A DNA stretch of 64,000 nt from Clostridia bacterium (GTDB taxonomy: Bacteria; Bacillota; Clostridia; Christensenellales; UBA1242). Below the pieces are notes generated by a model that was given only the letters and a program-made list of their open reading frames with translations, did no database searches and had not been told where the DNA came from. Both the position numbers and the translations under genes were made by a program. Below, in pieces: positions 31,152-55,893 of the stretch (its first letter is position 1; the number at the start of each line of letters is the position of its first letter). The DNA is taken from assembly GCA_045638465.1 (NCBI GenBank), contig JAZUBK010000043.1, forward strand, positions 8,416 to 72,415, read 5' to 3'.

Positions 31152-32717
31152 TTATTGTTGTTTGTTATCGTTTTTGCGTTGTTGTCTATCTCTTCTGATT
31201 TGTTCTCTTGCGATTTCTCTGTCGCTAAGTGGAGTAACGATTGCTCCTGATTTGAACCATTTATATAGATAAACACCACCAATAATAAGTACTGCAACAC
31301 CTACTACGATAATAAGTGTCCACATCATACGAGTTGTGCTTGTATTTTCGATAAAGATATATGCTTCTTCTGAAGTAAGGCCATCGATTGTTGCTTGTGC
31401 ATAAATGATATATTTACCGCTTTCTTCTACTTCAATATAGTTACCATCAGAATAATCAGTGTCGGCAAATCTAATTTGTACCAAAGCACCTTCTGGAGCC
31501 ATGGCAATTACTTTAAATGTGCCTTTTACTCTTTCTGGGTTTTTGTCTTGAATTTTGCCATCAATTTCTACTTTTATAGTAGGCATATCTGGGTAAACAT
31601 CAACTCTTTGAGCAGTAAAACCTTCTGTATACTCTGTGCCGTCATTGTAATATCTGATAATTAATCTACCAGTTGGAAGAATTAATCTTCCGTCTGCACC
31701 AGATTCTGATGCTAAAGTTTCTACGCCACCTACAGCAAAATCACTTTCTGCTCTATAAAAAGCTTTTGCAGTGATTAGTTCGTCTGCGGCAAAACCTTCT
31801 GTTGCAAGGTCAGGAGTAATTCTGATATATGTGTTATTAACAAATTTTACAGCTCCACTGCTTTTTTTGATACCTTGAACCAAAAGACTTACTTTATGAC
31901 CTTCAAATTGTTCATTTGCTTCTACAATATTTTCTTTTGTTACATCTGTCAAAAAGTTATTTGCAAGATAAACATACACTTCTGTAGTAGCCGCATTTGG
32001 CATAGTGATTTGTGCAACGTCTTCGATTAGGTTATTTTCTAGATGAGCTACTGCGTATGGCTCTCCGATGCTCTTTTTAGTCAAATAAGAAAGATCAATA
32101 GCTTTAAGCTCATTTCCAGAAAAATCTACATTACAAATTTTTGAAGTAGTAGGAAGTGTAACTGATGTTAAACCATTATTTTTTACAGAGATTGTATTTA
32201 GGTTAGGAAACTCAAGTAGCATATAGCTATCTATTGTTGGAATTTCGTGACCATCTAAGATAAGAGTAGTAAGATTTGTACAACCTCTCAAATATTCTAT
32301 ACCGTCAATGTTTGTGATTTTTCCTCTGATATTTGTAAGCAAGTCATCTTCTGATGTGTTGTCATAAAAGTTTAGTGTGATATCAGGACCAGATGGTGCA
32401 ATAAATGTTACGCTTACTTTGTCTTTAGTCAAATCAAGAACCTTTACAGGGGCAAGGTCACCAGCAAGTAACTTATTATCATTACTACCTGTATATTCTA
32501 TTTTGATTTGTTGAGCGATAGTCTTTAGGGCGGTATACAAATTTTCGTCCATAAAGTGCTCAGCAAGTGTTAATTCTGTATCTACTGTTACAACAGGTAC
32601 GTCCTCTCCGTCGTCTGCTGTTTCTGCGTATGCTTTTCTTCCGCCAAAGCCCATAGCAAACAAACTAAGTACTAGCGCAAGTGCAAAACTACATAGGCAA
32701 ATAATCTTTTTCTTCAT
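31152..32717 (-). CDS. Leucine-rich-repeat surface protein with signal peptide and C-terminal TM anchor
   Basis: 521 aa. LRR units (LTTLILDGHEI, NLNTISVKNNGLTSV, DFSGNELKAIDLSYL), hydrophobic helix WTLIIVVGVAVLIIGGVYLY, then a basic tail. Confidence 0.7.
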   Translation of the reverse strand: MKKKIICLCSFALALVLSLFAMGFGGRKAYAETADDGEDVPVVTVDTELTLAEHFMDENLYTALKTIAQQIKIEYTGSNDNKLLAGDLAPVKVLDLTKDKVSVTFIAPSGPDITLNFYDNTSEDDLLTNIRGKITNIDGIEYLRGCTNLTTLILDGHEIPTIDSYMLLEFPNLNTISVKNNGLTSVTLPTTSKICNVDFSGNELKAIDLSYLTKKSIGEPYAVAHLENNLIEDVAQITMPNAATTEVYVYLANNFLTDVTKENIVEANEQFEGHKVSLLVQGIKKSSGAVKFVNNTYIRITPDLATEGFAADELITAKAFYRAESDFAVGGVETLASESGADGRLILPTGRLIIRYYNDGTEYTEGFTAQRVDVYPDMPTIKVEIDGKIQDKNPERVKGTFKVIAMAPEGALVQIRFADTDYSDGNYIEVEESGKYIIYAQATIDGLTSEEAYIFIENTSTTRMMWTLIIVVGVAVLIIGGVYLYKWFKSGAIVTPLSDREIAREQIRRDRQQRKNDNKQQ

Positions 32718-37552: not shown

Positions 37553-39364
37553 TTATAATGTATTTTCTTTTGGAGTTACACTAAAGAATGAAACAATCTC
37601 GTCTCCGTCTTTTATAACTATAGAAAATCTTACATTGTTACCATAACTTGTTCCTGTTTTCATCACGCTGAAATATTCAGTTGTATTGATAACATAACAA
37701 TGATTTGTTTTGTCCAAATAATACTCGCAACTTCCAGCATCAGTCCACTCTATTGATTGAGGATTTACGCCATACTCGTCACAATATTTTGTTACGTCCA
37801 AAACAGAGCAGTAAATGTCTTGCATAACAAAGTTTGTTGTAACCGCTCCATCAACTGTAAGTGTATATGAAATAGGAATATTTGTTGTCAAAGAGCTATA
37901 TATTTTTTTATCAACAAGTTCTGACTCTAACTTGTGAAGGGCGTTTTCTACAGTAACCACGATAGAATATGTCTTTCCATCTTGTAGTGATGTAAGGAAG
38001 GTAGAAGGAATAATAATGTTATAATCAGAAATTTGAGCTTCACTAGCATCTAGAGCAATAAATGAGCCGTTATTTATAAATTTACCATCAACACCACCCT
38101 CAGCATCAAGAACTTTTGTTTCAGCCTCTGTGTAGTGAGTTTCGGTTTGGTTGCCTGTATTTTCAAAAGGAACAAGTACATGGCTTTTTTTGTTGCCAAT
38201 AATTACACCATTATTTGTGCAATTAATTACTTCATGAATATTTTGAACTATGGTATTTGTTTTGTATGTGTCATTACCAAAGAATATTCCGATAGAACCT
38301 GTAGTTGTTACATCTGCATTGTTTACACAATTTCTAAAAGTAACTTTTCCATCTGTTTTTGGATAACCACCAACAAAAATTCCACTCCAACTTGAAGTTG
38401 AATTTATTTTTGTTACGTCCATTGTGCAATTTGTTATATCAAAAGACGCATCGTGCATAACGTGACTGATAAACGCAGATTTATTTGTTCCTTGTTGATT
38501 AATTGGGGCGCCGTTTGAATCTATAGTAATATTCTCAAATTTTGTTGTATCTCTACGTGCTCCTTCATTATAAACGCCACCGCTTGTATAAAAAGCAAGA
38601 CCTACAACACTGTCTGCCAAAGAAACATCTAGGTTTTTAATTGTTGTATCTACTATTATGTTAAATATATAACCTGAAGGAAAGTTGGTTGGGTTTACAT
38701 TAGAAAGTTTGTAATTTCCCTCATTATCATTTGTAAAAACATTTGTTTTTGCTCCGTCTAGTACAAATGAAGAATAACCAGTTGCGGTAATTACTTGGCT
38801 ATCAAAGACGATATCATTTATTAATCTAAAATATTGTTTTGAGGTTTCATAAGTCCAAGTTTTTACACCACTTTTCTCAGCGCTTACTACATTTACTGTA
38901 GCATATCCAGTTGTTTTAACAACTTTGTCATAAGTGTCTGAACTAGGGACTTTTGTATCTCCTTGGTAATAATCTACTTCTTCGCTACTTGTAAGTGCAG
39001 AAACAGAATCTGCCATTTTCTTGAAATGCTCTTCGGTAGAAATAAGATATGGATTTTCTTGTGTTCCGTTACCACCTTTTGCAATTAGTGTAGCGGTATC
39101 ATTTTTCCAACCTTTTAATACCCATTGTCTAGCATAACCATTTTCATCTTCTAGAACAGGCCAATTTGTTTGGTCATTTAAATCTTTTTTATCAATCTTC
39201 TTTACAACATTTTTTGTAGAAGAATCGTTATCTTCATCAAAAACCAAGGTATAACTAGAGTTTTCTTTGTCTCCATCGTTATTGCCACAAGCCGTAAACA
39301 TGCCTGTGCAACATATTGCAGCCAAAGAACCTAACGCTATCTTTTTTAGAATATCCTTTTTCAT
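37553..39364 (-). CDS. Large surface lipoprotein of unknown function (beta-helix-like)
   Basis: 603 aa. Lipobox CCTGMFTAC. Asn/Thr/Gly-rich repetitive body with no catalytic motif recognised. Confidence 0.6.
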   Translation of the reverse strand: MKKDILKKIALGSLAAICCTGMFTACGNNDGDKENSSYTLVFDEDNDSSTKNVVKKIDKKDLNDQTNWPVLEDENGYARQWVLKGWKNDTATLIAKGGNGTQENPYLISTEEHFKKMADSVSALTSSEEVDYYQGDTKVPSSDTYDKVVKTTGYATVNVVSAEKSGVKTWTYETSKQYFRLINDIVFDSQVITATGYSSFVLDGAKTNVFTNDNEGNYKLSNVNPTNFPSGYIFNIIVDTTIKNLDVSLADSVVGLAFYTSGGVYNEGARRDTTKFENITIDSNGAPINQQGTNKSAFISHVMHDASFDITNCTMDVTKINSTSSWSGIFVGGYPKTDGKVTFRNCVNNADVTTTGSIGIFFGNDTYKTNTIVQNIHEVINCTNNGVIIGNKKSHVLVPFENTGNQTETHYTEAETKVLDAEGGVDGKFINNGSFIALDASEAQISDYNIIIPSTFLTSLQDGKTYSIVVTVENALHKLESELVDKKIYSSLTTNIPISYTLTVDGAVTTNFVMQDIYCSVLDVTKYCDEYGVNPQSIEWTDAGSCEYYLDKTNHCYVINTTEYFSVMKTGTSYGNNVRFSIVIKDGDEIVSFFSVTPKENTL

Positions 39365-47065: not shown

Positions 47066-47094
47066 TTGAACTTTTAACTTTCTTAGTGTATAAT
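47066..47094 (+). promoter_or_regulatory. Near-consensus sigma-A promoter of the giant-protein operon
   Basis: TTGAAC (47066-47071), 17-nt spacer, TATAAT (47089-47094), preceded directly by TG. Confidence 0.6.
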
Positions 47095-47222: not shown

Positions 47223-47972
47223 ATGGCAAGAAAAGCTAGAGAAATCAGCATCATTAATAGTTATGTTATTTGCTTTAACGCTAGAGAGAATTTGACCTTT
47301 GACGTGGGTGATAAAAGAAACTTTTTGTCACTACTAAATGGGCTAAAATCTGACGGCTTTGAACTTCTTGCCTACAACTTAAAAGACAGGGCTTTTTATC
47401 TTTTTGCTTTTGATATCAAAATGAGCATTGACACTTTGCTTAGAAAGATTGCAGTTAGATTTGCAAAAAGCTACAACCAACGCCATTGTCGCAGTGGTAA
47501 AGTTTTTGCTGATAGAGCGACTACTACCCCAGCCCAAAATTATGACGATGTTATTTCTATGATTTTGAGGATACACGAACTTAACGATATTCAACCTACT
47601 AAGTTTTGTAGTTTCAAAAAATACTTTGAAGATTCTAATATTGACCAAGCCTTTATTTTAGAAAAGTTTGGCTCTGAAGAAAACTTCTATGAGTATTCTA
47701 AAAACAAAAGCAACGTATCAACTGACTCTTTACAAAAGAAACTTTCAGACAACGAATTAGAAGAATATATCTTCAACACATACAAACTAGATAGTGAAGA
47801 AATCAAAAACTTATCTACTCGCAAAAAGGAAAACTTCGTAACTAGTTTGATCAAACTAACCAAAGCCTCAGCTAGACAAATAAGTAGAGTTACTAGTTTA
47901 CCTTTGAGATTCCTTTGGGACTTGTACAAAAAATCTTCAACAGAGGAAAGGAAAGATGGAGAAGCAAGATAA
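47223..47972 (+). CDS. Y1/HUH (IS200/RAYT, COG1943-type) transposase-like protein lacking catalytic residues, with a C-terminal DnaA-C-like HTH
   Basis: 249 aa. MARKARE..., LLAYNLKDRAFYLF, SGKVFADR, ILRIHELN align to the family consensus MPRKAR..., AYCLMxNHxHLL, GHLFQDRF, LRYIHxNP. C-terminal ASARQISRVTSLPLRFL is HTH-like. Confidence 0.65.
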   Translation: MARKAREISIINSYVICFNARENLTFDVGDKRNFLSLLNGLKSDGFELLAYNLKDRAFYLFAFDIKMSIDTLLRKIAVRFAKSYNQRHCRSGKVFADRATTTPAQNYDDVISMILRIHELNDIQPTKFCSFKKYFEDSNIDQAFILEKFGSEENFYEYSKNKSNVSTDSLQKKLSDNELEEYIFNTYKLDSEEIKNLSTRKKENFVTSLIKLTKASARQISRVTSLPLRFLWDLYKKSSTEERKDGEAR

Positions 47973-49221
47973 CAAAACAGATAAAGATTTGCCTTTAGAA
48001 AAAGTTAATAAGTCTACTAAAAAATCATCTACAAAAAAGCCACCTCAAAAAACTAACAATAGTGGCAAGAAAAAAGAAATCGAACTTCCAAAGTTTGAGT
48101 ACAAAAAACTTATCAATGAAGATGATGTAAAAAAAGAAGACTCTTTATCTAAAGTAGATGAGTTAACTACTAATTCTATAAAGACAGACAAATCTAAAAA
48201 ACTAAATAAATCTAAAAAAGAAAAAGCCAAGGCAAAAACAGATGAGCCAAAGCAAAAGAAAAAGTTTAACAAAAGATCTTTTGTTTCTATGTTAGTACTT
48301 TTTGTTTTGGGTATCAGTTCGGGACTTTTTGCTGGTAATTGGTATGCAACAAACTTTATAGCAGGACCAGCTACCGACTATAGTTTGTTTTCTGAAGTAG
48401 AACTTAGAGCGGGTAACGACAAAATTGCAGCAGACTACGCAAACAAAGTTCCAACAGCAGATAGTGCATGGAAATCATTTATCGCAGCAGAAAAGAACTT
48501 TTACTCTGCAGATACATTTGATATTTTGACCAACGGCGTTGTTGATACTATCGTAAAACAAGATTTTTATTCTAGAAAAATCTACAACGGCGAAAAATTT
48601 TATTTTGAACAAATAAGTGACGGTATGGTTGCGGTGGCTAGTAAATATGTTTATGAGCCATCTAAATATATCTTGGAAGACAAATCAACACACATTGTTT
48701 GCTCAAAGGCAAAACTTAACGGAACAAGAACTATTAACGATTATCTTACTTGTGATTTTGGCTGTAAGCATGGCAACAAAAATGCTTATATCTTTAACAC
48801 AGATTATTCAAGCAAAACAACTACAATGACAGAAGATGAGTTTATTGAGGCTCTTGGCGGCAAGACTCTTAGCCCTATCTCTTATATAGTCTCTGACAAA
48901 ACCGTACTATCTTGCGGAAAGTTCAAGGTAGTTGGCAGTGGAGACGACACTAGATATACATTTACTATGAACTTACATAGTGGCGCTTCTGTTCTAAACT
49001 ATGTTAAACAAATGAAAACCGTAAGTGGTTTGTCAGATTTTCCTACATTTACCGAAGTCGTTTTTAACGTTAGCCTTCAAATGCTAGACGGCAAGGTAAT
49101 GTTTGATTATATATGCATCTCAGAAAAATATAGCGTTCCTTATGGTTCACTTACACCTAAATGTACAGGAACACTACACCAAAGATTTTTATTTAACGGG
49201 GATTATACAATTCCTGCTTAG
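47956..49221 (+). CDS. Single-pass anchored protein: ~105-aa Lys-rich N-terminus, TM, ~295-aa extracytoplasmic domain of unknown fold
   Basis: 421 aa. Overlaps the upstream gene by 17 nt. TM is FVSMLVLFVLGISSGLFAGNWYA. Confidence 0.65.
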   Translation: MEKQDNKTDKDLPLEKVNKSTKKSSTKKPPQKTNNSGKKKEIELPKFEYKKLINEDDVKKEDSLSKVDELTTNSIKTDKSKKLNKSKKEKAKAKTDEPKQKKKFNKRSFVSMLVLFVLGISSGLFAGNWYATNFIAGPATDYSLFSEVELRAGNDKIAADYANKVPTADSAWKSFIAAEKNFYSADTFDILTNGVVDTIVKQDFYSRKIYNGEKFYFEQISDGMVAVASKYVYEPSKYILEDKSTHIVCSKAKLNGTRTINDYLTCDFGCKHGNKNAYIFNTDYSSKTTTMTEDEFIEALGGKTLSPISYIVSDKTVLSCGKFKVVGSGDDTRYTFTMNLHSGASVLNYVKQMKTVSGLSDFPTFTEVVFNVSLQMLDGKVMFDYICISEKYSVPYGSLTPKCTGTLHQRFLFNGDYTIPA

Positions 49222-49230
49222 GAGAAAGTT

Positions 49231-52200
49231 ATGAAAAAATTTCTAAAAGGATTGAGATACTTTTTGTGCTATGTGGCAATAACGCTATCCACAGCTGTAG
49301 GCGTGGTTGTTTATCAGTCAAATAGTGCAGGTAGTGTTAGCAACGGAAATTTAGCAGGTTCTACCGTAGGACAGGTAGAAAATAACTTAATGGAAGTTGT
49401 TACAAACTTAATGGACCTTGAAAGTTTTAATGTAAATAGCTCTGTATCATTAACTGATACCACAAAGCCTTCTTCAACACCTATTGATATTGACTTTAAT
49501 ATCGATATCAACCTAGGCACTGGGTTTTCTTCTATAGAGGCTGATGGTGTATTTGATATAGCACTAGACAACAAAACTTTTGATGTAGCAATTAGGTTTG
49601 TAGATAATACTTTCTATGTTTCTGCACTAGACCAAGATATTCAGTTCACAGCATCTGGACTTGTCGAGGGTATTGGCGGCGTACTAGCACTGCTTGATGT
49701 AGACCTTCCACTAGACAGTAGCCTTATGGAAAACTTTGACGTTACTGCACTTCTTGGATATATGGGTGAGTACAAAGAAGTAGAAACCGAAACAGGATAT
49801 AATATAAACCTTGAGTTTATGGGTTATGATATAGCAATGGTTTGCGACAACTTGTTTAACTTAAACTCAGTAGTAATAGAAAATATGGCTATTGAAGGGT
49901 TTAAAATTGACCTAAACTTAGGACTTGAAACTTATGAGCAAAAGGTTGAAATCACAAAACCTCAACATAGCTTTATAAATCTTGATACAGTAACAAGCCT
50001 TGTTAATATGACTCAAGATGTTTTAGAAAACAACTTTGTTATGGCAGATATCTCTGCAAGTTACGAAGGTATAAACCTAGACTTTAATGCTAAAGCAGAT
50101 TTTTCAGACAACTTTATTATGAGTCTTACAACTCCAGCTTTTGACGGAATTAACTTCTCTTTCAAAAATGGCAGTTTGTATGCAAACGTTGGCAACCTAA
50201 AAGTTAAAGGAAGAGCTGCCGATATATCTACAATAATTGATTTCGTAAACGGAGACTTGAGAGCAAATATCGAAAGCATCTCTCCAGAAATTGTAGAAAC
50301 TATCACCTCTAAGACAAATGAGATTACTTCATCTATCTCAAACGAACTAAAAAATATAGATGCAAATAAGCTTCTTGATTATATAGACTATCTAACAATA
50401 TCAGATAACCAAATCATTATTGATATACCAAGCACTGCCAAAGTTGTAATAGATATTGAAAGTGGTTATATTACTTCAATTACTGCAAACGCCTATGGCG
50501 TAGATCTTACAATAGATAATATATCTTTTGAAAAACAAGCTATCGAAATTAACACAAATGACTTTGTTGATTTTGACAAAGTATTCCCAACTTTCAAAAC
50601 TTTTGTAAACACACTATTTACAAAAGGTATCAGTGGTACAATGACATTTGGCCGTGGAAACAAAACAAACTCTCTAAACTACGGAATAAGATATACAAAC
50701 CACTTCGAAACAAGTTTTGATACAACTATATTAAACAAAACAGTTTCTGTAGTTTCAGACAACTCAAAAGTTTATTTGATGGTAGATGGCATAAAGGTAA
50801 ATGTAGACCTTGCCGAATACCAAACAATTATTGATTACATAAACGAAACCTTTAATCAAAACATTTCTTTGCCTAGCTTTGAGATGCCAGAGATTGACCC
50901 ATACACAATGGTTGTCGGGGCTATCTCTTCTATAGATTATCTAAAAGCTATTGATAGTGGCATCGAACTATCTATAGGCGGAATTGTTATCCAAATTATT
51001 TCAAACGAAAACTATATCCAAACGCTAAATGTAAAATACAACGATTATTCATTTGCTCTAAATATTACAGGTTACGGCGAAGTTGAATTGTTTGACATAG
51101 ACAAAGACGACTACCTAGTATTTAGCGATCTTACAAACTACGTAGACAAAGCAACAAGCTTTGCAAATAGCACAAGCTTTAATATGCACCTTGGCATTAT
51201 GGCAGACATAAATGGCACAGACATTACAGCGATGGCAGACGGAAGAGTTGGACTAAACGGAAATGTAGAAGCAACCGTTACTACTACAGTTAATGATTTT
51301 GGCCTAGATTTCTCTATGGCTTTGACTGATGATGCTTTGGGCCTAACATATGACGGACTAAACGTTTATGCAAAACAATCATCAATTGGTGCTCTTACAA
51401 ACATTATCAAAAACATTGTTCCAAATTATGTAAATATTGATAGTTTGCTACAACAAAATAATATAGACCTTGATAAAACACTAAGCTCAGACATTAAACT
51501 TCCTGCTATAGATACAAAACAACTTATCTTAGCAGTAAAACGACTAAATCTTAACAAAGATACTCTAACAGCAGAACTTGACTGCAGCGAATTCACTTCA
51601 GGCGAAAAATCAACTGCAATTGTCGTTGTAAGAATGGTAAATGGCGGATACGAACTAAGAATAGGTTTAGTATATAACGATATAGTTATTAATTTGTACC
51701 TAAAACTTACTTCTACAGAAGACTTTACAGCTTCTATTCCAGCAGATGCAATCGATGTGGAAGACTACTTAAATCTTGTAGAATATATGCACAATACAAT
51801 CGATAGCAGAAATCTAGCACTAGACGTAACTGCAACAATCGACCAAACAGAAATTGTAGCTAAAGTTCTTGCAGACTTTAGATCTACTCTAAAAGTTAAA
51901 GCAACAACAGAAAGTTTGGGTAGCAAACTAGATGTTGTTTATGCAAGTGATATAAACAAACTACTTGTTACATTTGGTGATATCAAAATCTCAGGCAAAT
52001 CTTCTGACCTTGCAGATATCCTAAACTTTGTAAAAGTAGACCTAAACAATGCGCTTTTAACTTATGGCGAAAAGGCTTTGTCAAAGGTTAACTTTGAAAG
52101 TCTAACTCAAAGCAAAGATACAACTATTACATTTGAGGATATAAAAGATATCCTACACTCTATCACATTTGGTGATGACACAATTAGTTTTGTAAAAGAT

Positions 52201-55200
52201 AACATTGTTGTTACTTTGACAATTACAAACAAATCAATCTCAAATATCAAGTTTGCTATAGATAATATCGTAGTAAATGTAGGTGTTTCAGACAATACCC
52301 AAGCAATTACATACACAACTGCAGGTTATAGTGCATTTGAAAACATCTTGGATAATCTAAAAGCAATTACAAATGTTGCAACCTCTCAAGCTTTTGGCGG
52401 AAAGGTAACTATAACTTACAACAAAGATAAAACTTACACAGGAAACCTAAAAGTTAACTACATTAATAATGTATTGAGCGTTCATGTAGATTCTAACGTC
52501 TACGACCAAGATATATCTATTGATATTATTGGCTCTATAGTTTATGTAAAACTAAACGAACTAAAACTTCAAGTTTCTTGGGCAGAAAGATATGCTCTTC
52601 AAGAATATCTAAATTCAAAATTTGATTTACAATTAGATATTGATGCTATATTCAATATGGCAAAAGGCGTTGCAAGTTCTACAAAAGACTTTAGCCTAGA
52701 CAATATCAATATCGACTTTATCTCAAACTTTGTAGCAAACAAAAACGGCCTTGACATTACAGTAAGTGATATTCCTGTATCTCTTGGCATCGCAAAATAC
52801 GGCGACACTGACAAAAACTATTTGTCTTATATCTCTGCAGGTTATGACAAATTTGACATTTCAATTAACGAAATGACATTTGGTCAAGACGCAATAGTAA
52901 ATAGCGTAAACGCAACAGAATATCACAAGTACACAGACTTTACAAAATATTTCGACGAGATAGAGAGATTGATCAACGCATCTAAAGATAGCGCAACAGA
53001 CCAATACACTCTAAAAGGCGGAATCAAACTATACAAACTAGACGCAAACGGCAATGCTCTTGTAACTGATGGAGTTGCAGATGAAATCACAATCTCTATT
53101 AATGATTTGAAATTTGACGCAACCAAGAACACCTTTATTGGCGGAATCGATGCTAAAGGCTCTGGCTCACTATACGAAAGTTACCTTTCTGGCTATGACC
53201 ACAGCTTTGATGCGGCATATGATTATAACTTCATCTATTTTGATTACAACGGCCTAAGAGCTAAGTTTAGTAAACAAAGTAACAGTGAGTTTATCACCAC
53301 TCTAAAGAAAATGCTTCCTACATATCTTGGCGACACTCCGCTTACAAGACAATTAGTTTCTATATTTGATATGATTAGGTTTGACACTATGGGTAATATG
53401 TTATTCAACCCAGTAAAACTTGACGTAACATACAATATGATAGAACAATTTGCTCCTATGCTATCTACACTAAAATTAGAAGAAAATGGCAGCCTAACTA
53501 TTGGACTTGACATCTCTACACTAGACCCAACATTTAAAGAAGAATTGCTTTTGAATGTATCTATTGACGAAAGCGGTAGACTTGCTCTAGTTATAAACAA
53601 ATTCAAACTAACAAAAGATCTTGCTATTGACTTTACAATCTATGTAGACACTGCAAGTACCTTTACTGTAAATCCAGAGGGCGACTATCTTGATATGACT
53701 TCTATTGGCAAACTTCTTAGCGATTTTGATAACACAGCCCAAAAGACAACTACCGACAACGAAGTTTATAAACTAAACCTAAGTGGTAGCTTCCACCTAA
53801 AGATTGCAGTAAGCTTTATCAAGATCAACGAAGATATCCCATTTAAAGCACAACTTATCATCGATAGAAACAGCAATCAATTAATCGAAGCAAAAATCGA
53901 AGTTGATATGCCATCTATTATTTTAGTTACCGATGGTTGCTACTCAACTCTATATCTAACCAATAGACTAGAGGGCGAAAATATTTTGTATATTGATAGA
54001 CAAGGCAAAGACCCTCTAAAATCAAAATACAAAGTAAGTGAGCTTGGCGCTAACCTACTAAATGTTATTTCTGATATTACTGCAATATCTTCATCAACCC
54101 TAGAAACATTTATGACTATGGACATCAAATATATCGATGGCCCATCTAAGGCAGAAAATGTATTGAAAGATTATTCTTGCGTAACAGGAATAAATACAAG
54201 AGATTATACTATTGGCCTAGACCTAAGACAAATTACTCGTATGGATATGATGCTTGGCTACTCTGCATCTAACCCTACAGGAGTTGTTATCCATTCACAA
54301 AACAACGCTTTCTCATCAATTGATATCAACAATATAACCTTAGAGGCTATATCAAATGTATTTATTTATGTAAATGGTACAATCGACCTTACAAAGATAA
54401 ATCAAACAAGTGATATTATAGGCGAAATCGAAAACCTTGACGCTACACTTTATGGCTCATGGGGTGATGGTAGCTTAGTTGCTGACTTTATCGAAAATGG
54501 TGGTAGCAACGTTCCAAACAAAATGGGAACAACTGGTAGAAGCTTTACTCTTCCTGTTCCTGTAAAAGAAGTTGTAAACGGCAACACCTTAGAAGTTTAT
54601 AAATTCCTTGGCTGGAGCCTAAATAGTGACGGTAGCGGAGAGCTTTATAACGGCAAATATATGTTCGAAACAAGTTCTCTTACATTCTACGCTGTATGGG
54701 AGCTAGATACTGTCTACACAAGCAGAACAATTAATTTTGTTACAGAGTATCTAATGGCAAATGGTATCGATAGTAAAGTAGAAAACAATATATCATCTAT
54801 TACAAACTATAATGGATACGACATCTCAAACAGCTTACCAACTATAAGCGACACAGTTACTATCTACTACGAAGACGAAGGCGTATCTATCACATATAGA
54901 TATGACGGTTTATTTAAAACAAGAACAGTAAATAGTGACGGAACTATTGTCTATAGCGACAAGTTTGATCAAACAGTTATGCCAAACGAAGATTTGACAT
55001 TGTATGCAAGTTTTGTGGAAATCGACAGAGTTTATAAGAGAAAACTTACTATCTTAGATGAAAGCAAGACTTTGTACGAAGGTTACTTCGTAGAAGGCGA
55101 TGTTATCGACATCTTGAGTTTGGTTGCATACAAAGATACAACTAGATGGTATGATGATTATGACGCTACTGCTACAACAAGATACACCAACGAAATCTTA

Positions 55201-55893
55201 ACAGTTGACCTTCCAACCACAATGCCAAGAGGAAATGACCTATCACTATATGTTAGAAATAAGTATACTATTACTTATACTTCAAACTTCGGTGACAAAA
55301 AGACATATACTCAAACAGATTATCAAGGAGAACCTATTTCTCTTCCTACTCAAACAAGTTATGAAAATATCGTATACAAAGAAGAAAAAGATTCTGACGG
55401 AAATAAGATTCCAAACTACCTATCAACATTTGTATATGAAGGTTATACATTGAGTACTGATTCTTCAGTTGCAGTACCAAGCGTTATTCCAAGCAAAAAC
55501 GCAACATATGCAGCAAAATGGTCAAATATAACTACAAGTTATGTAAAAGTTACCTTCTCTTCTCCTTGGGTAAAACCAAGTGCTTGGTGGTTTGGTTGTT
55601 CTCAAGAAGTGGCGCCTAGAGGAACTCTTGTAAGATATGTTCTAAACGGCTCAACTCTAAACAATACAACCCTAAGCAAAAAGACCTCTATTATTGGTCT
55701 TACTGCAAACGAAGACGAAAACATTTCTGACTACTGTGTATATAAATATGCTATAAAATATAAATTCTCTATTACCGTATGGAATAAAGAAGGCGCTAAA
55801 AACCACAACACAGGAAGTGCAACAGCAAAGAGTTGGACAATTACTGGCGATACAACATTCTATGGAGAATGGGAGTGCACAGGCATTGTTTAA
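49231..55893 (+). CDS. Giant (2,220 aa) N-terminally anchored exoprotein with ~195-aa periodic modules and C-terminal Flg_new-type repeats
   Basis: Uninterrupted ORF with RBS AGGAGA. N-terminal helix YFLCYVAITLSTAVGVVVY. Seven recurring beta-strand/helix anchor motifs. C-terminal YKFLGWSLNSDGSGELYNGKYMF..LTFYAVWE. Confidence 0.8.
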   Translation: MKKFLKGLRYFLCYVAITLSTAVGVVVYQSNSAGSVSNGNLAGSTVGQVENNLMEVVTNLMDLESFNVNSSVSLTDTTKPSSTPIDIDFNIDINLGTGFSSIEADGVFDIALDNKTFDVAIRFVDNTFYVSALDQDIQFTASGLVEGIGGVLALLDVDLPLDSSLMENFDVTALLGYMGEYKEVETETGYNINLEFMGYDIAMVCDNLFNLNSVVIENMAIEGFKIDLNLGLETYEQKVEITKPQHSFINLDTVTSLVNMTQDVLENNFVMADISASYEGINLDFNAKADFSDNFIMSLTTPAFDGINFSFKNGSLYANVGNLKVKGRAADISTIIDFVNGDLRANIESISPEIVETITSKTNEITSSISNELKNIDANKLLDYIDYLTISDNQIIIDIPSTAKVVIDIESGYITSITANAYGVDLTIDNISFEKQAIEINTNDFVDFDKVFPTFKTFVNTLFTKGISGTMTFGRGNKTNSLNYGIRYTNHFETSFDTTILNKTVSVVSDNSKVYLMVDGIKVNVDLAEYQTIIDYINETFNQNISLPSFEMPEIDPYTMVVGAISSIDYLKAIDSGIELSIGGIVIQIISNENYIQTLNVKYNDYSFALNITGYGEVELFDIDKDDYLVFSDLTNYVDKATSFANSTSFNMHLGIMADINGTDITAMADGRVGLNGNVEATVTTTVNDFGLDFSMALTDDALGLTYDGLNVYAKQSSIGALTNIIKNIVPNYVNIDSLLQQNNIDLDKTLSSDIKLPAIDTKQLILAVKRLNLNKDTLTAELDCSEFTSGEKSTAIVVVRMVNGGYELRIGLVYNDIVINLYLKLTSTEDFTASIPADAIDVEDYLNLVEYMHNTIDSRNLALDVTATIDQTEIVAKVLADFRSTLKVKATTESLGSKLDVVYASDINKLLVTFGDIKISGKSSDLADILNFVKVDLNNALLTYGEKALSKVNFESLTQSKDTTITFEDIKDILHSITFGDDTISFVKDNIVVTLTITNKSISNIKFAIDNIVVNVGVSDNTQAITYTTAGYSAFENILDNLKAITNVATSQAFGGKVTITYNKDKTYTGNLKVNYINNVLSVHVDSNVYDQDISIDIIGSIVYVKLNELKLQVSWAERYALQEYLNSKFDLQLDIDAIFNMAKGVASSTKDFSLDNINIDFISNFVANKNGLDITVSDIPVSLGIAKYGDTDKNYLSYISAGYDKFDISINEMTFGQDAIVNSVNATEYHKYTDFTKYFDEIERLINASKDSATDQYTLKGGIKLYKLDANGNALVTDGVADEITISINDLKFDATKNTFIGGIDAKGSGSLYESYLSGYDHSFDAAYDYNFIYFDYNGLRAKFSKQSNSEFITTLKKMLPTYLGDTPLTRQLVSIFDMIRFDTMGNMLFNPVKLDVTYNMIEQFAPMLSTLKLEENGSLTIGLDISTLDPTFKEELLLNVSIDESGRLALVINKFKLTKDLAIDFTIYVDTASTFTVNPEGDYLDMTSIGKLLSDFDNTAQKTTTDNEVYKLNLSGSFHLKIAVSFIKINEDIPFKAQLIIDRNSNQLIEAKIEVDMPSIILVTDGCYSTLYLTNRLEGENILYIDRQGKDPLKSKYKVSELGANLLNVISDITAISSSTLETFMTMDIKYIDGPSKAENVLKDYSCVTGINTRDYTIGLDLRQITRMDMMLGYSASNPTGVVIHSQNNAFSSIDINNITLEAISNVFIYVNGTIDLTKINQTSDIIGEIENLDATLYGSWGDGSLVADFIENGGSNVPNKMGTTGRSFTLPVPVKEVVNGNTLEVYKFLGWSLNSDGSGELYNGKYMFETSSLTFYAVWELDTVYTSRTINFVTEYLMANGIDSKVENNISSITNYNGYDISNSLPTISDTVTIYYEDEGVSITYRYDGLFKTRTVNSDGTIVYSDKFDQTVMPNEDLTLYASFVEIDRVYKRKLTILDESKTLYEGYFVEGDVIDILSLVAYKDTTRWYDDYDATATTRYTNEILTVDLPTTMPRGNDLSLYVRNKYTITYTSNFGDKKTYTQTDYQGEPISLPTQTSYENIVYKEEKDSDGNKIPNYLSTFVYEGYTLSTDSSVAVPSVIPSKNATYAAKWSNITTSYVKVTFSSPWVKPSAWWFGCSQEVAPRGTLVRYVLNGSTLNNTTLSKKTSIIGLTANEDENISDYCVYKYAIKYKFSITVWNKEGAKNHNTGSATAKSWTITGDTTFYGEWECTGIV

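Follow-up and report, generated by a model that had tools for sequence, protein, structure and literature searches.

A giant protein of an uncultured Clostridia bacterium carries a tandem array of ancient modules with a predicted LolA-type fold

LolA, of the LolA-like structural superfamily (InterPro 'Prokaryotic lipoproteins and lipoprotein localisation factors'), consists of 11 antiparallel strands that form an unclosed barrel with embedded helices, closed by an N-terminal helix (PMC11885536). LolA and LolB are single soluble or lipid-anchored domains from hosts with two membranes; LprG, LppX and LprF are mycobacterial glycolipid-carrier lipoproteins (Pfam LppX_LprAFG); RseB and MucB are sensing or protein-activating proteins of LolA-like structure; and GerS, a LolA-like protein of Firmicutes, activates an amidase, which is protein–protein work and not lipid transport (10.1101/2025.01.13.632879). 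The half-barrel of LolA and LprG is known as a single-domain carrier, and our literature search found no description of chains of 5–19 such domains. Here we analyse a giant gene in a stretch of 64,000 nucleotides (nt) from a Clostridia bacterium (assembly GCA_045638465.1, contig JAZUBK010000043.1, positions 8,416 to 72,415 of the forward strand); 'the window' denotes this whole stretch, and coordinates refer to it. An earlier sequence-only reading of the window had noticed a motif that recurs seven times in the encoded protein, and had proposed an elongated, modular, beta-rich structure anchored by one N-terminal helix. We predict, with good confidence, that the product of the gene is the larger member of a conserved pair of envelope proteins in uncultured gut Clostridia with a single membrane. 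Its modules are predicted to adopt the LolA-type fold; although this fold is known, our literature search found no description of the architecture or of the sequence family.

The array was delimited with an iterated module hidden Markov model (HMM), which found seven modules of 180–240 residues whose neighbours lie 1–6 residues apart. The gene and its modules are given below with residue numbers in amino acids (aa) and expect values (E).

49231..55893, + strand: giant gene P0001, a 6,663-nt open reading frame (ORF) encoding 2220 aa, from the ORF list and its translation
49378..49950, + strand: module 1, aa 50-240, with motif copy 1 at aa 128-155; module HMM E 5e-16
49957..50544, + strand: module 2, aa 243-438, with motif copy 2 at aa 316-339 and an extra helix of ~25 aa; HMM E 1e-39, AlphaFold2 confidence (pLDDT, predicted local distance difference test) mostly >85, Foldseek matches of LolA type
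50548..51090, + strand: module 3, aa 440-620, with motif copy 3 at aa 514-537; HMM E 2e-38, modelled as an N-terminal helix, six strands, two helices and five strands
51097..51726, + strand: module 4, aa 623-832, with motif copy 4 at aa 705-729; HMM E 8e-29, hhalign E 1e-11 to 1e-15 against modules 2, 3, 5 and 6
51739..52311, + strand: module 5, aa 837-1027, with motif copy 5 at aa 911-934; HMM E 8e-32, nearest relative module 2 (E 7e-24)
52315..52896, + strand: module 6, aa 1029-1222, with motif copy 6 at aa 1104-1127; HMM E 2e-34, nearest relative module 3 (E 9e-25)
52915..53625, + strand: module 7, aa 1229-1465, with an insertion and motif copy 7 at aa 1335-1362; HMM E 7e-23, the best-conserved module among orthologs

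Each of the seven motif strings was found once in the protein, at exactly the residues and nucleotides that had been claimed, and the spacings of 188, 198, 191, 206, 193 and 231 aa were reproduced. Because self-BLASTP of the giant protein gave nothing off the diagonal, profiles were needed, and we compared a family profile, built by aligning the giant protein with 15 homologs (16 members), with itself by hhalign. Off-diagonal alignments were obtained with E of 4e-55, 1e-43, 4e-48, 5e-20 and 2e-10 at shifts of one, two, three, four and five modules, respectively, and of 0.02 at a shift of six. The shifted alignments mapped the motif starts onto one another in the proposed register (aa 128 to 316, 514, 703/705, 911/913, 1104 and 1335) and extended beyond copy 7, to ~aa 1586. 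When profiles of individual modules were compared by hhalign, modules 2–6 matched one another with E of 1e-11 to 1e-25, the module 1 profile matched modules 2–4 with E of 1e-5 to 1e-8, and the module 7 profile matched modules 2, 4 and 6 with E of 1e-7 to 1e-10, whereas the best control pair reached 0.048 for column-shuffled and 3e-5 for reversed profiles. The internal periodicity is therefore significant in a profile self-comparison, with far weaker shuffled and reversed controls.

An explanation of the periodicity as chance or as a by-product of strand-rich composition, with no true internal duplication, could appeal to the empty self-BLASTP comparison and to pairwise identities between modules of only ~11–20%. 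It is refuted by the profile self-comparison, the register and the controlled module-pair profiles, and we assign it next to no probability: E falls to 1e-25 for a pair of modules and to 4e-55 for the shifted whole, against at least 0.05 with shuffling and at least 3e-5 with reversal; one identical register holds over six shifts; both modelled modules are predicted with the same fold; and relatives carry recent duplicates of 90–96% identity. The copies are old, as had been supposed, since no pair of modules within the giant protein reaches 30% identity and similarity at the DNA level is essentially nil. The statement that there is no DNA-level identity was likewise essentially right, apart from a single borderline match in a DNA self-BLAST (54 nt, 78% identity, E 0.003) between window positions 50200-50251 and 50793-50845 (gene nt 970-1021 and 1563-1615). 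This sole DNA-level trace of the repeat joins motif 2 to motif 3, in register.

To predict the fold we used stacked pairs of modules, because alignments of single proteins were shallow. The folding alignment stacked consecutive modules from 14 loci as 53 pairs that were in phase and did not overlap; it mixes paralogous modules, and a check showed that no row was shifted by a module. AlphaFold2 modelled aa 241-622 (modules 2 and 3) with a mean pLDDT of 87.5 and a predicted template modelling score (pTM) of 0.77, and pLDDT was 92–96 at the junction between the domains. In the model, each module consists of an N-terminal helix, six antiparallel strands, one to three embedded helices (one long, one short) and five strands, for totals of three or four helices and eleven strands, and this order of elements agrees with the published description of LolA (PMC11885536). 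The recurring motif corresponds to strand 5, a turn, strand 6 and the first embedded helix (helix 2), which form the best-conserved stretch of the domain. A Foldseek search of the Protein Data Bank (PDB) returned, with probability 1.0, LolA (2w7q, 9azz, 8v1k, 4ki3), LolB (3wjt), LprF (4qa8), RseB (2v43) and MucB (6in9). Matches to DNA-polymerase sliding clamps were rejected (probability ≤0.35, template modelling score (TM-score) 0.08–0.12, root-mean-square deviation (rmsd) ~25 Å), and a search of a viral structure library gave nothing meaningful. The modules are thus predicted to be open half-barrels of LolA type, with the helix and 11 strands that define the LolA-like superfamily. The expectation of homologous modules that share one fold was borne out by structure prediction of paired modules 2 and 3 and by Foldseek; the description of the protein as modular stands, but 'beta-rich' is too simple for a mixed alpha/beta domain with three or four helices and eleven strands.

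Sequence searches did not reveal this relationship. Pfam matches of the whole giant protein included none to LolA, LolB, LppX_LprAFG or MucB_RseB, and the same four were absent both from the matches of the first module pair and from the 25 families listed for all 53 pairs; an NCBIfam search of the giant protein gave no match, and profile searches of PDB sequences with the module pairs, and with the partner protein described below, were equally empty. LolA and LolB resemble the modules in structure, with an N-terminal helix, an unclosed 11-strand barrel and helices between strands 6 and 7 (here as predicted), but not in Pfam sequence matches, and differ from the giant protein in being one domain where it fuses seven or eight. 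The hosts differ as well. Omp85/BamA was found neither in the genome that encodes the giant protein nor in five other carriers, while seven of seven two-membrane control genomes scored, which indicates a single-membrane envelope; this does not fit the Lol lipoprotein-sorting pathway, which requires two membranes and an outer-membrane acceptor (no search for LolCDE was made). RseB and MucB matched the modules at the fold level, yet these proteins and GerS have one or two domains, form no tandem arrays and work with other partners.

A chain of strand-rich repeats also recalls the bridges that span envelopes, either as a continuous beta-groove (of the AsmA, TamB, YhdP or VPS13 kind) or as an LptA-like jellyroll. 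The giant protein has a putative N-terminal anchor and is very long, strand-rich and repetitive, and it shares with LptC-LptA-LptD and TamB/YhdP the idea of a bridge assembled from lipid-binding repeats and held by a helix at its N-terminus. We nevertheless regard this reading as very improbable. The folds differ, in that each repeat is a discrete closed domain of 3–4 helices and 11 strands, whereas the units of a continuous groove have five strands and a loop; the 50 best of 1011 Foldseek matches included no structure of TamB, AsmA, Lpt or VPS13; and a single-membrane cell offers no outer membrane to reach.

The count of seven proved incomplete. All seven copies stand, and a partly recognisable eighth follows them, absent from the earlier list and containing ENILYIDRQGKDPLKSKYKVSELGANLLNVISDI.

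53674..54096, + strand: eighth copy, first half, aa 1482-1622, with the motif ENILYIDRQG...LLNVISDI at ~aa 1583-1616; hhalign against the 127-module profile
54097..54480, + strand: conserved segment, aa 1623-1750; strand-like pattern by eye only, high identity among orthologs

Against a profile of 127 modules, the eighth copy aligned with a probability of 96% and E of 4e-9 over profile positions 2-106, which comprise the first helix, six strands and the second helix, and its residues Y1587 and R1590 are invariant in 16 of 16 homologs. The conserved segment that follows may correspond to a second half of module 8 that has diverged, but aa 1623-1750 matched the module profile with E of 0.2–0.3, no better than a reversed control. 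The array thus consists of seven modules and a half-supported eighth.

We searched the 127-module profile against 1.84 billion representative proteins (clusters at 50% identity) and obtained 917 clusters at E ≤ 1e-3 and 442 at E ≤ 1e-30. Family members have 5–19 matched modules and lengths of 1,295–6,215 aa, so the number of modules does vary among homologs, a point on which the sequence-only reading had asked for a check. Among 150 family representatives, an N-terminal hydrophobic helix was present in 138, the first module started by residue 80 in 122, and the tail behind the last module had a median length of 530 aa. Relatives record how the arrays change. One with ten modules (L001) has duplicated modules 3-4-5, with copies 50–60% identical, and one with five (L002) is without modules 4 and 5; L005 and L003 have grown by two-module blocks, whose copies are up to 96% identical, and L008 by a four-module block at 90–96% identity. 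Arrays therefore lengthen or shorten as blocks of two to four modules are duplicated or lost, and in some lineages they are still expanding. Very recent block duplications lie at L008:8917-13200 and L005:8500-12700. Within the giant protein, modules 2 and 5 and modules 3 and 6 are mutually closest, a pattern suggestive of an old unit of three modules. The terminal modules have been retained, and identity to the L001 ortholog is 80% for module 7, compared to 34–70% for modules 1–6. Evolution is fastest in the internal modules, and conservation is highest across residues 1300-2000. Three genomes from the order of the host (G025:C26, G095:C9 and G139:C4) contain open frames of 10,300–11,348 aa with one weak module-profile match each (E ~1e-4), which may represent different types of giant surface protein.

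The second protein of the pair is encoded directly upstream.

47956..49221, + strand: partner gene P0002, 421 aa, with a Lys-rich cytoplasmic tail, one membrane helix and an ectodomain of ~290 aa; from the ORF, the alignment and AlphaFold2

In 11 of the 12 loci with upstream DNA, the giant gene is immediately preceded by a homolog of the partner. The exception, L010 (L010:4001-16294), encodes a relative of 4,097 aa with 16 modules and has a cytidine-deaminase gene in the partner's place; a phage-type integrase gene and a helix-turn-helix (HTH) gene lie just downstream of this relative. The membrane helix of the partner carries the pattern G119xxxG123xxxG127, in which G123 and G127 are invariant and G119 is at least 90% conserved. 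Its cytoplasmic tail (window 47956-48270) has 33 Lys and Arg in 105 aa and ranges from 0 to ~105 residues among relatives. AlphaFold2 modelled the ectodomain with pLDDT 91.3 and pTM 0.88, and the best Foldseek matches were LprG structures 3mh8 and 3mha, the latter with bound phosphatidylinositol mannoside (PIM), at probability 1.0 and TM-scores of ~0.5, followed by the sheets of lipovitellin and ApoB and by LolB. The model thus predicts an LprG/LolA-like fold for the ectodomain. The partner and module profiles showed no relation by hhalign (E 0.6), a Pfam search of 12 partners found four families, none of them LolA, LolB, LppX_LprAFG or MucB_RseB, and NCBIfam gave no match for the partner; with the searches above, neither module nor partner has a sequence relative in Pfam or the PDB, and NCBIfam has none for the giant protein or the partner. 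LprG, LppX and LprF, like this pair, are tethered to the membrane and face the wall, with LprG the best structural match of the partner ectodomain and LprF among the top matches of the modules. They differ from the partner in having a lipid anchor and ~200 aa, where it has a membrane helix and an ectodomain of ~290 aa with no sequence similarity, and no transporter like Rv1410 is conserved beside the partner.

Two further regions flank the array.

49258..49314, + strand: N-terminal hydrophobic helix, aa 10-28 (YFLCYVAITLSTAVGVVVY), behind the basic start MKKFLKGLR, a signal anchor or signal peptide; mean Kyte-Doolittle hydropathy 1.87
54487..55890, + strand: C-terminal region with repeats of the Listeria-Bacteroides (Flg_new / InlB B-repeat) type; Pfam PF09479, below the cut-off

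The single N-terminal hydrophobic helix that had been proposed is present, with the hydropathy given above. In an alignment of 16 homologs that extends down to ~20% identity, its residues Y14 and A22 never vary, while T21 and G24 are conserved in at least 90% of the sequences. The protein as a whole is strongly acidic, with 294 Asp and Glu compared to 162 Lys and Arg, and precomputed PF09479 matches are present in most close homologs. The most conserved part of the protein, which comprises module 7, module 8 and the segment to ~aa 2000, follows the chain of modules and is itself followed by the Listeria-Bacteroides-type repeats.

We favour a reading in which the giant protein is a stiff, membrane-rooted rod that holds out a distal binding head, and we judge its chances of being right to be about even. 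On the evidence of the model, the array is most likely a stiff rod and not beads on a string, because only 1–6 residues separate the domains and confidence in the two-domain model stays high where they meet. The N-terminal helix would anchor the rod in the membrane and may pair there with the membrane helix of the partner, since both helices carry conserved small-xxx-small zippers. The LprG-like ectodomain of the partner would be placed at the base of the rod, and the acidic rod would extend across the wall and beyond it, so that the conserved distal head and the repeats could bind a ligand carried by food particles, host mucus or other cells. Gain and loss of internal module blocks would tune the length of the rod in evolution. 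We prefer this reading because adhesin stalks likewise vary in length, evolve fast in the middle and keep a conserved tip, and it draws support from the C-terminal repeat domains, which are typical of surface proteins.

The overall layout resembles that of fibrillar adhesins (anchor, tandem-domain stalk, distal binding domain), with a putative anchor and a candidate binding region in the giant protein. The two also share the change of stalk length by block duplication or loss, a fast-evolving middle and a conserved distal part, and the C-terminal Listeria-Bacteroides-type repeats may be a further likeness; tandem domains of varying number, the mark of a fibrillar-adhesin stalk, amount to 7–8 here and 5–19 in relatives. 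The stalk units of fibrillar adhesins, however, are small immunoglobulin (Ig)-like domains where those of the giant protein are 190-aa alpha/beta half-barrels, their anchor is an LPXTG sortase anchor where the giant protein has an N-terminal hydrophobic helix (no sortase-motif search was made), and the giant protein has a dedicated partner.

Several observations tell against the rod with a distal head. A plain spacer leaves the lipid-carrier fold of the partner unexplained; the stalks of known fibrillar adhesins are made of small domains of 80–100 aa, not of 190-aa half-barrels; the Foldseek matches of the modules have TM-scores of 0.40–0.45 normalised to the target and rmsd of 7–11 Å, which is moderate similarity; the PF09479 match in the giant protein itself (aa 1753-1822, E 6.5e-4) scores 20.2 bits, under the Pfam cut-off of 27; and the N-terminal helix may be cleaved by signal peptidase.

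Such cleavage is the starting point of an unlikely alternative, in which the helix serves as a signal peptide whose removal frees the chain, and the partner or the C-terminal repeats would then hold the chain as a surface layer or matrix. The layout of the N-terminus, positive then hydrophobic then polar, and the small residues S30-N31-S32 just past the helix are in keeping with a secreted protein of the wall or matrix, as is the very acidic composition, which many wall-associated proteins share. A hydrophobic stretch of 19 residues, however, is long for the core of a signal peptide, and Y14, T21, A22 and G24 are conserved down to 20% identity. Conserved polar and small residues suggest that the helix is kept and packs against another helix, and the partner has a matching glycine zipper.

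The main rival, which we rate as possible though clearly less probable than the rod with a distal head, is a relay for lipids or lipoglycans. Here the half-barrels would be working hydrophobic cups that pass acylated molecules from cup to cup across the wall, with the partner loading or unloading them at the membrane; transport could run outward (glycolipids, lipoteichoic acid or lipoprotein anchors) or inward (scavenged fatty acids or lipids that the cell is unable to make). Proven lipid carriers share the fold that is predicted for both members of the pair, and the matches of the partner include PIM-bound LprG (3mha), lipovitellin and ApoB. The two genes are strictly syntenic, and rigid end-to-end packing, as the module-pair model suggests, would suit hand-over between cups. 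This reading leaves the C-terminal repeats and the conserved distal head without a role, no lipase, acyltransferase or transporter is conserved beside the gene pair in 13 loci, and LolA-like folds in Firmicutes can serve non-lipid roles, as GerS does (10.1101/2025.01.13.632879).

Host lipid synthesis can be read both ways. The host genome measures 1.15 Mb at 97.8% completeness, and relatives from the same family have genomes of 0.8–1.0 Mb at 100% completeness. A ketoacyl synthase of FabF type was found neither in the host nor in any of six sampled genomes of its family, so acyl chains would have to be imported, which would fit a lipid relay; genomes this tiny (0.8–1.15 Mb) and without a FabF-type synthase point to a lineage that is probably a fatty-acid auxotroph with a dependent lifestyle. 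Across the order, however, loss of the enzyme is common, with the synthase present in 59 and lost in 92 of 151 genomes, and it shows no link to the giant gene (synthase in 2 of 9 module carriers and 57 of 142 non-carriers; Fisher p = 0.48). Within the host's family, three genomes without the synthase have either no module match (G094, G144) or one weak match (G120), which also argues against the relay. A more specific form of this idea is more tentative still: a covalent chain of eight LolA-type cups, which feeds or is fed by a membrane-tethered LprG-like loader in a single-membrane cell, might act as an extracellular lipid relay that moves acylated molecules across the wall with neither ATP nor a second membrane and, in a 1.15-Mb cell with no fatty-acid synthesis of its own, might pull lipid from whatever the distal Listeria-Bacteroides repeats hold.

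In a search of the genome with the module profile, the giant gene was the sole carrier of these modules. The gene occupies 0.6% of the 1.15 Mb, a cost that must be repaid by some benefit to the cell. Should the chain carry lipid, this would be a new way of moving hydrophobic molecules through a Gram-positive wall and could show how gut bacteria with tiny genomes obtain lipids; should it serve only as a stalk, surface proteins would have gained a stalk domain of a new type. In both cases, the module merits a family entry and a solved structure.

The giant gene is the third and last of three genes that overlap or abut, with the following further features at the ends of the putative transcription unit.

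47066..47094, + strand: promoter-like site TTGAAC-17-TATAAT 5' of the three genes; consensus scan, 10 of 12 matches, with such sites no commoner in the region than in shuffled sequence
47223..47972, + strand: first gene of the operon, P0003, 249 aa, overlapping the partner gene by 17 nt; a homolog lies upstream in 7 of the 11 other loci examined, one of which is ended by the contig end
55901..55931, no strand assigned: two-way terminator-like hairpin, 8 nt past the stop codon of the giant gene, with a 14-bp stem and T runs on both strands

Two other genes of surface type lie elsewhere in the window, both on the − strand. One (31152-32717) encodes 521 aa with leucine-rich-repeat-like segments and a C-terminal membrane helix, and the other (37553-39364) encodes a lipoprotein-like protein of 603 aa with a Cys in its signal sequence.

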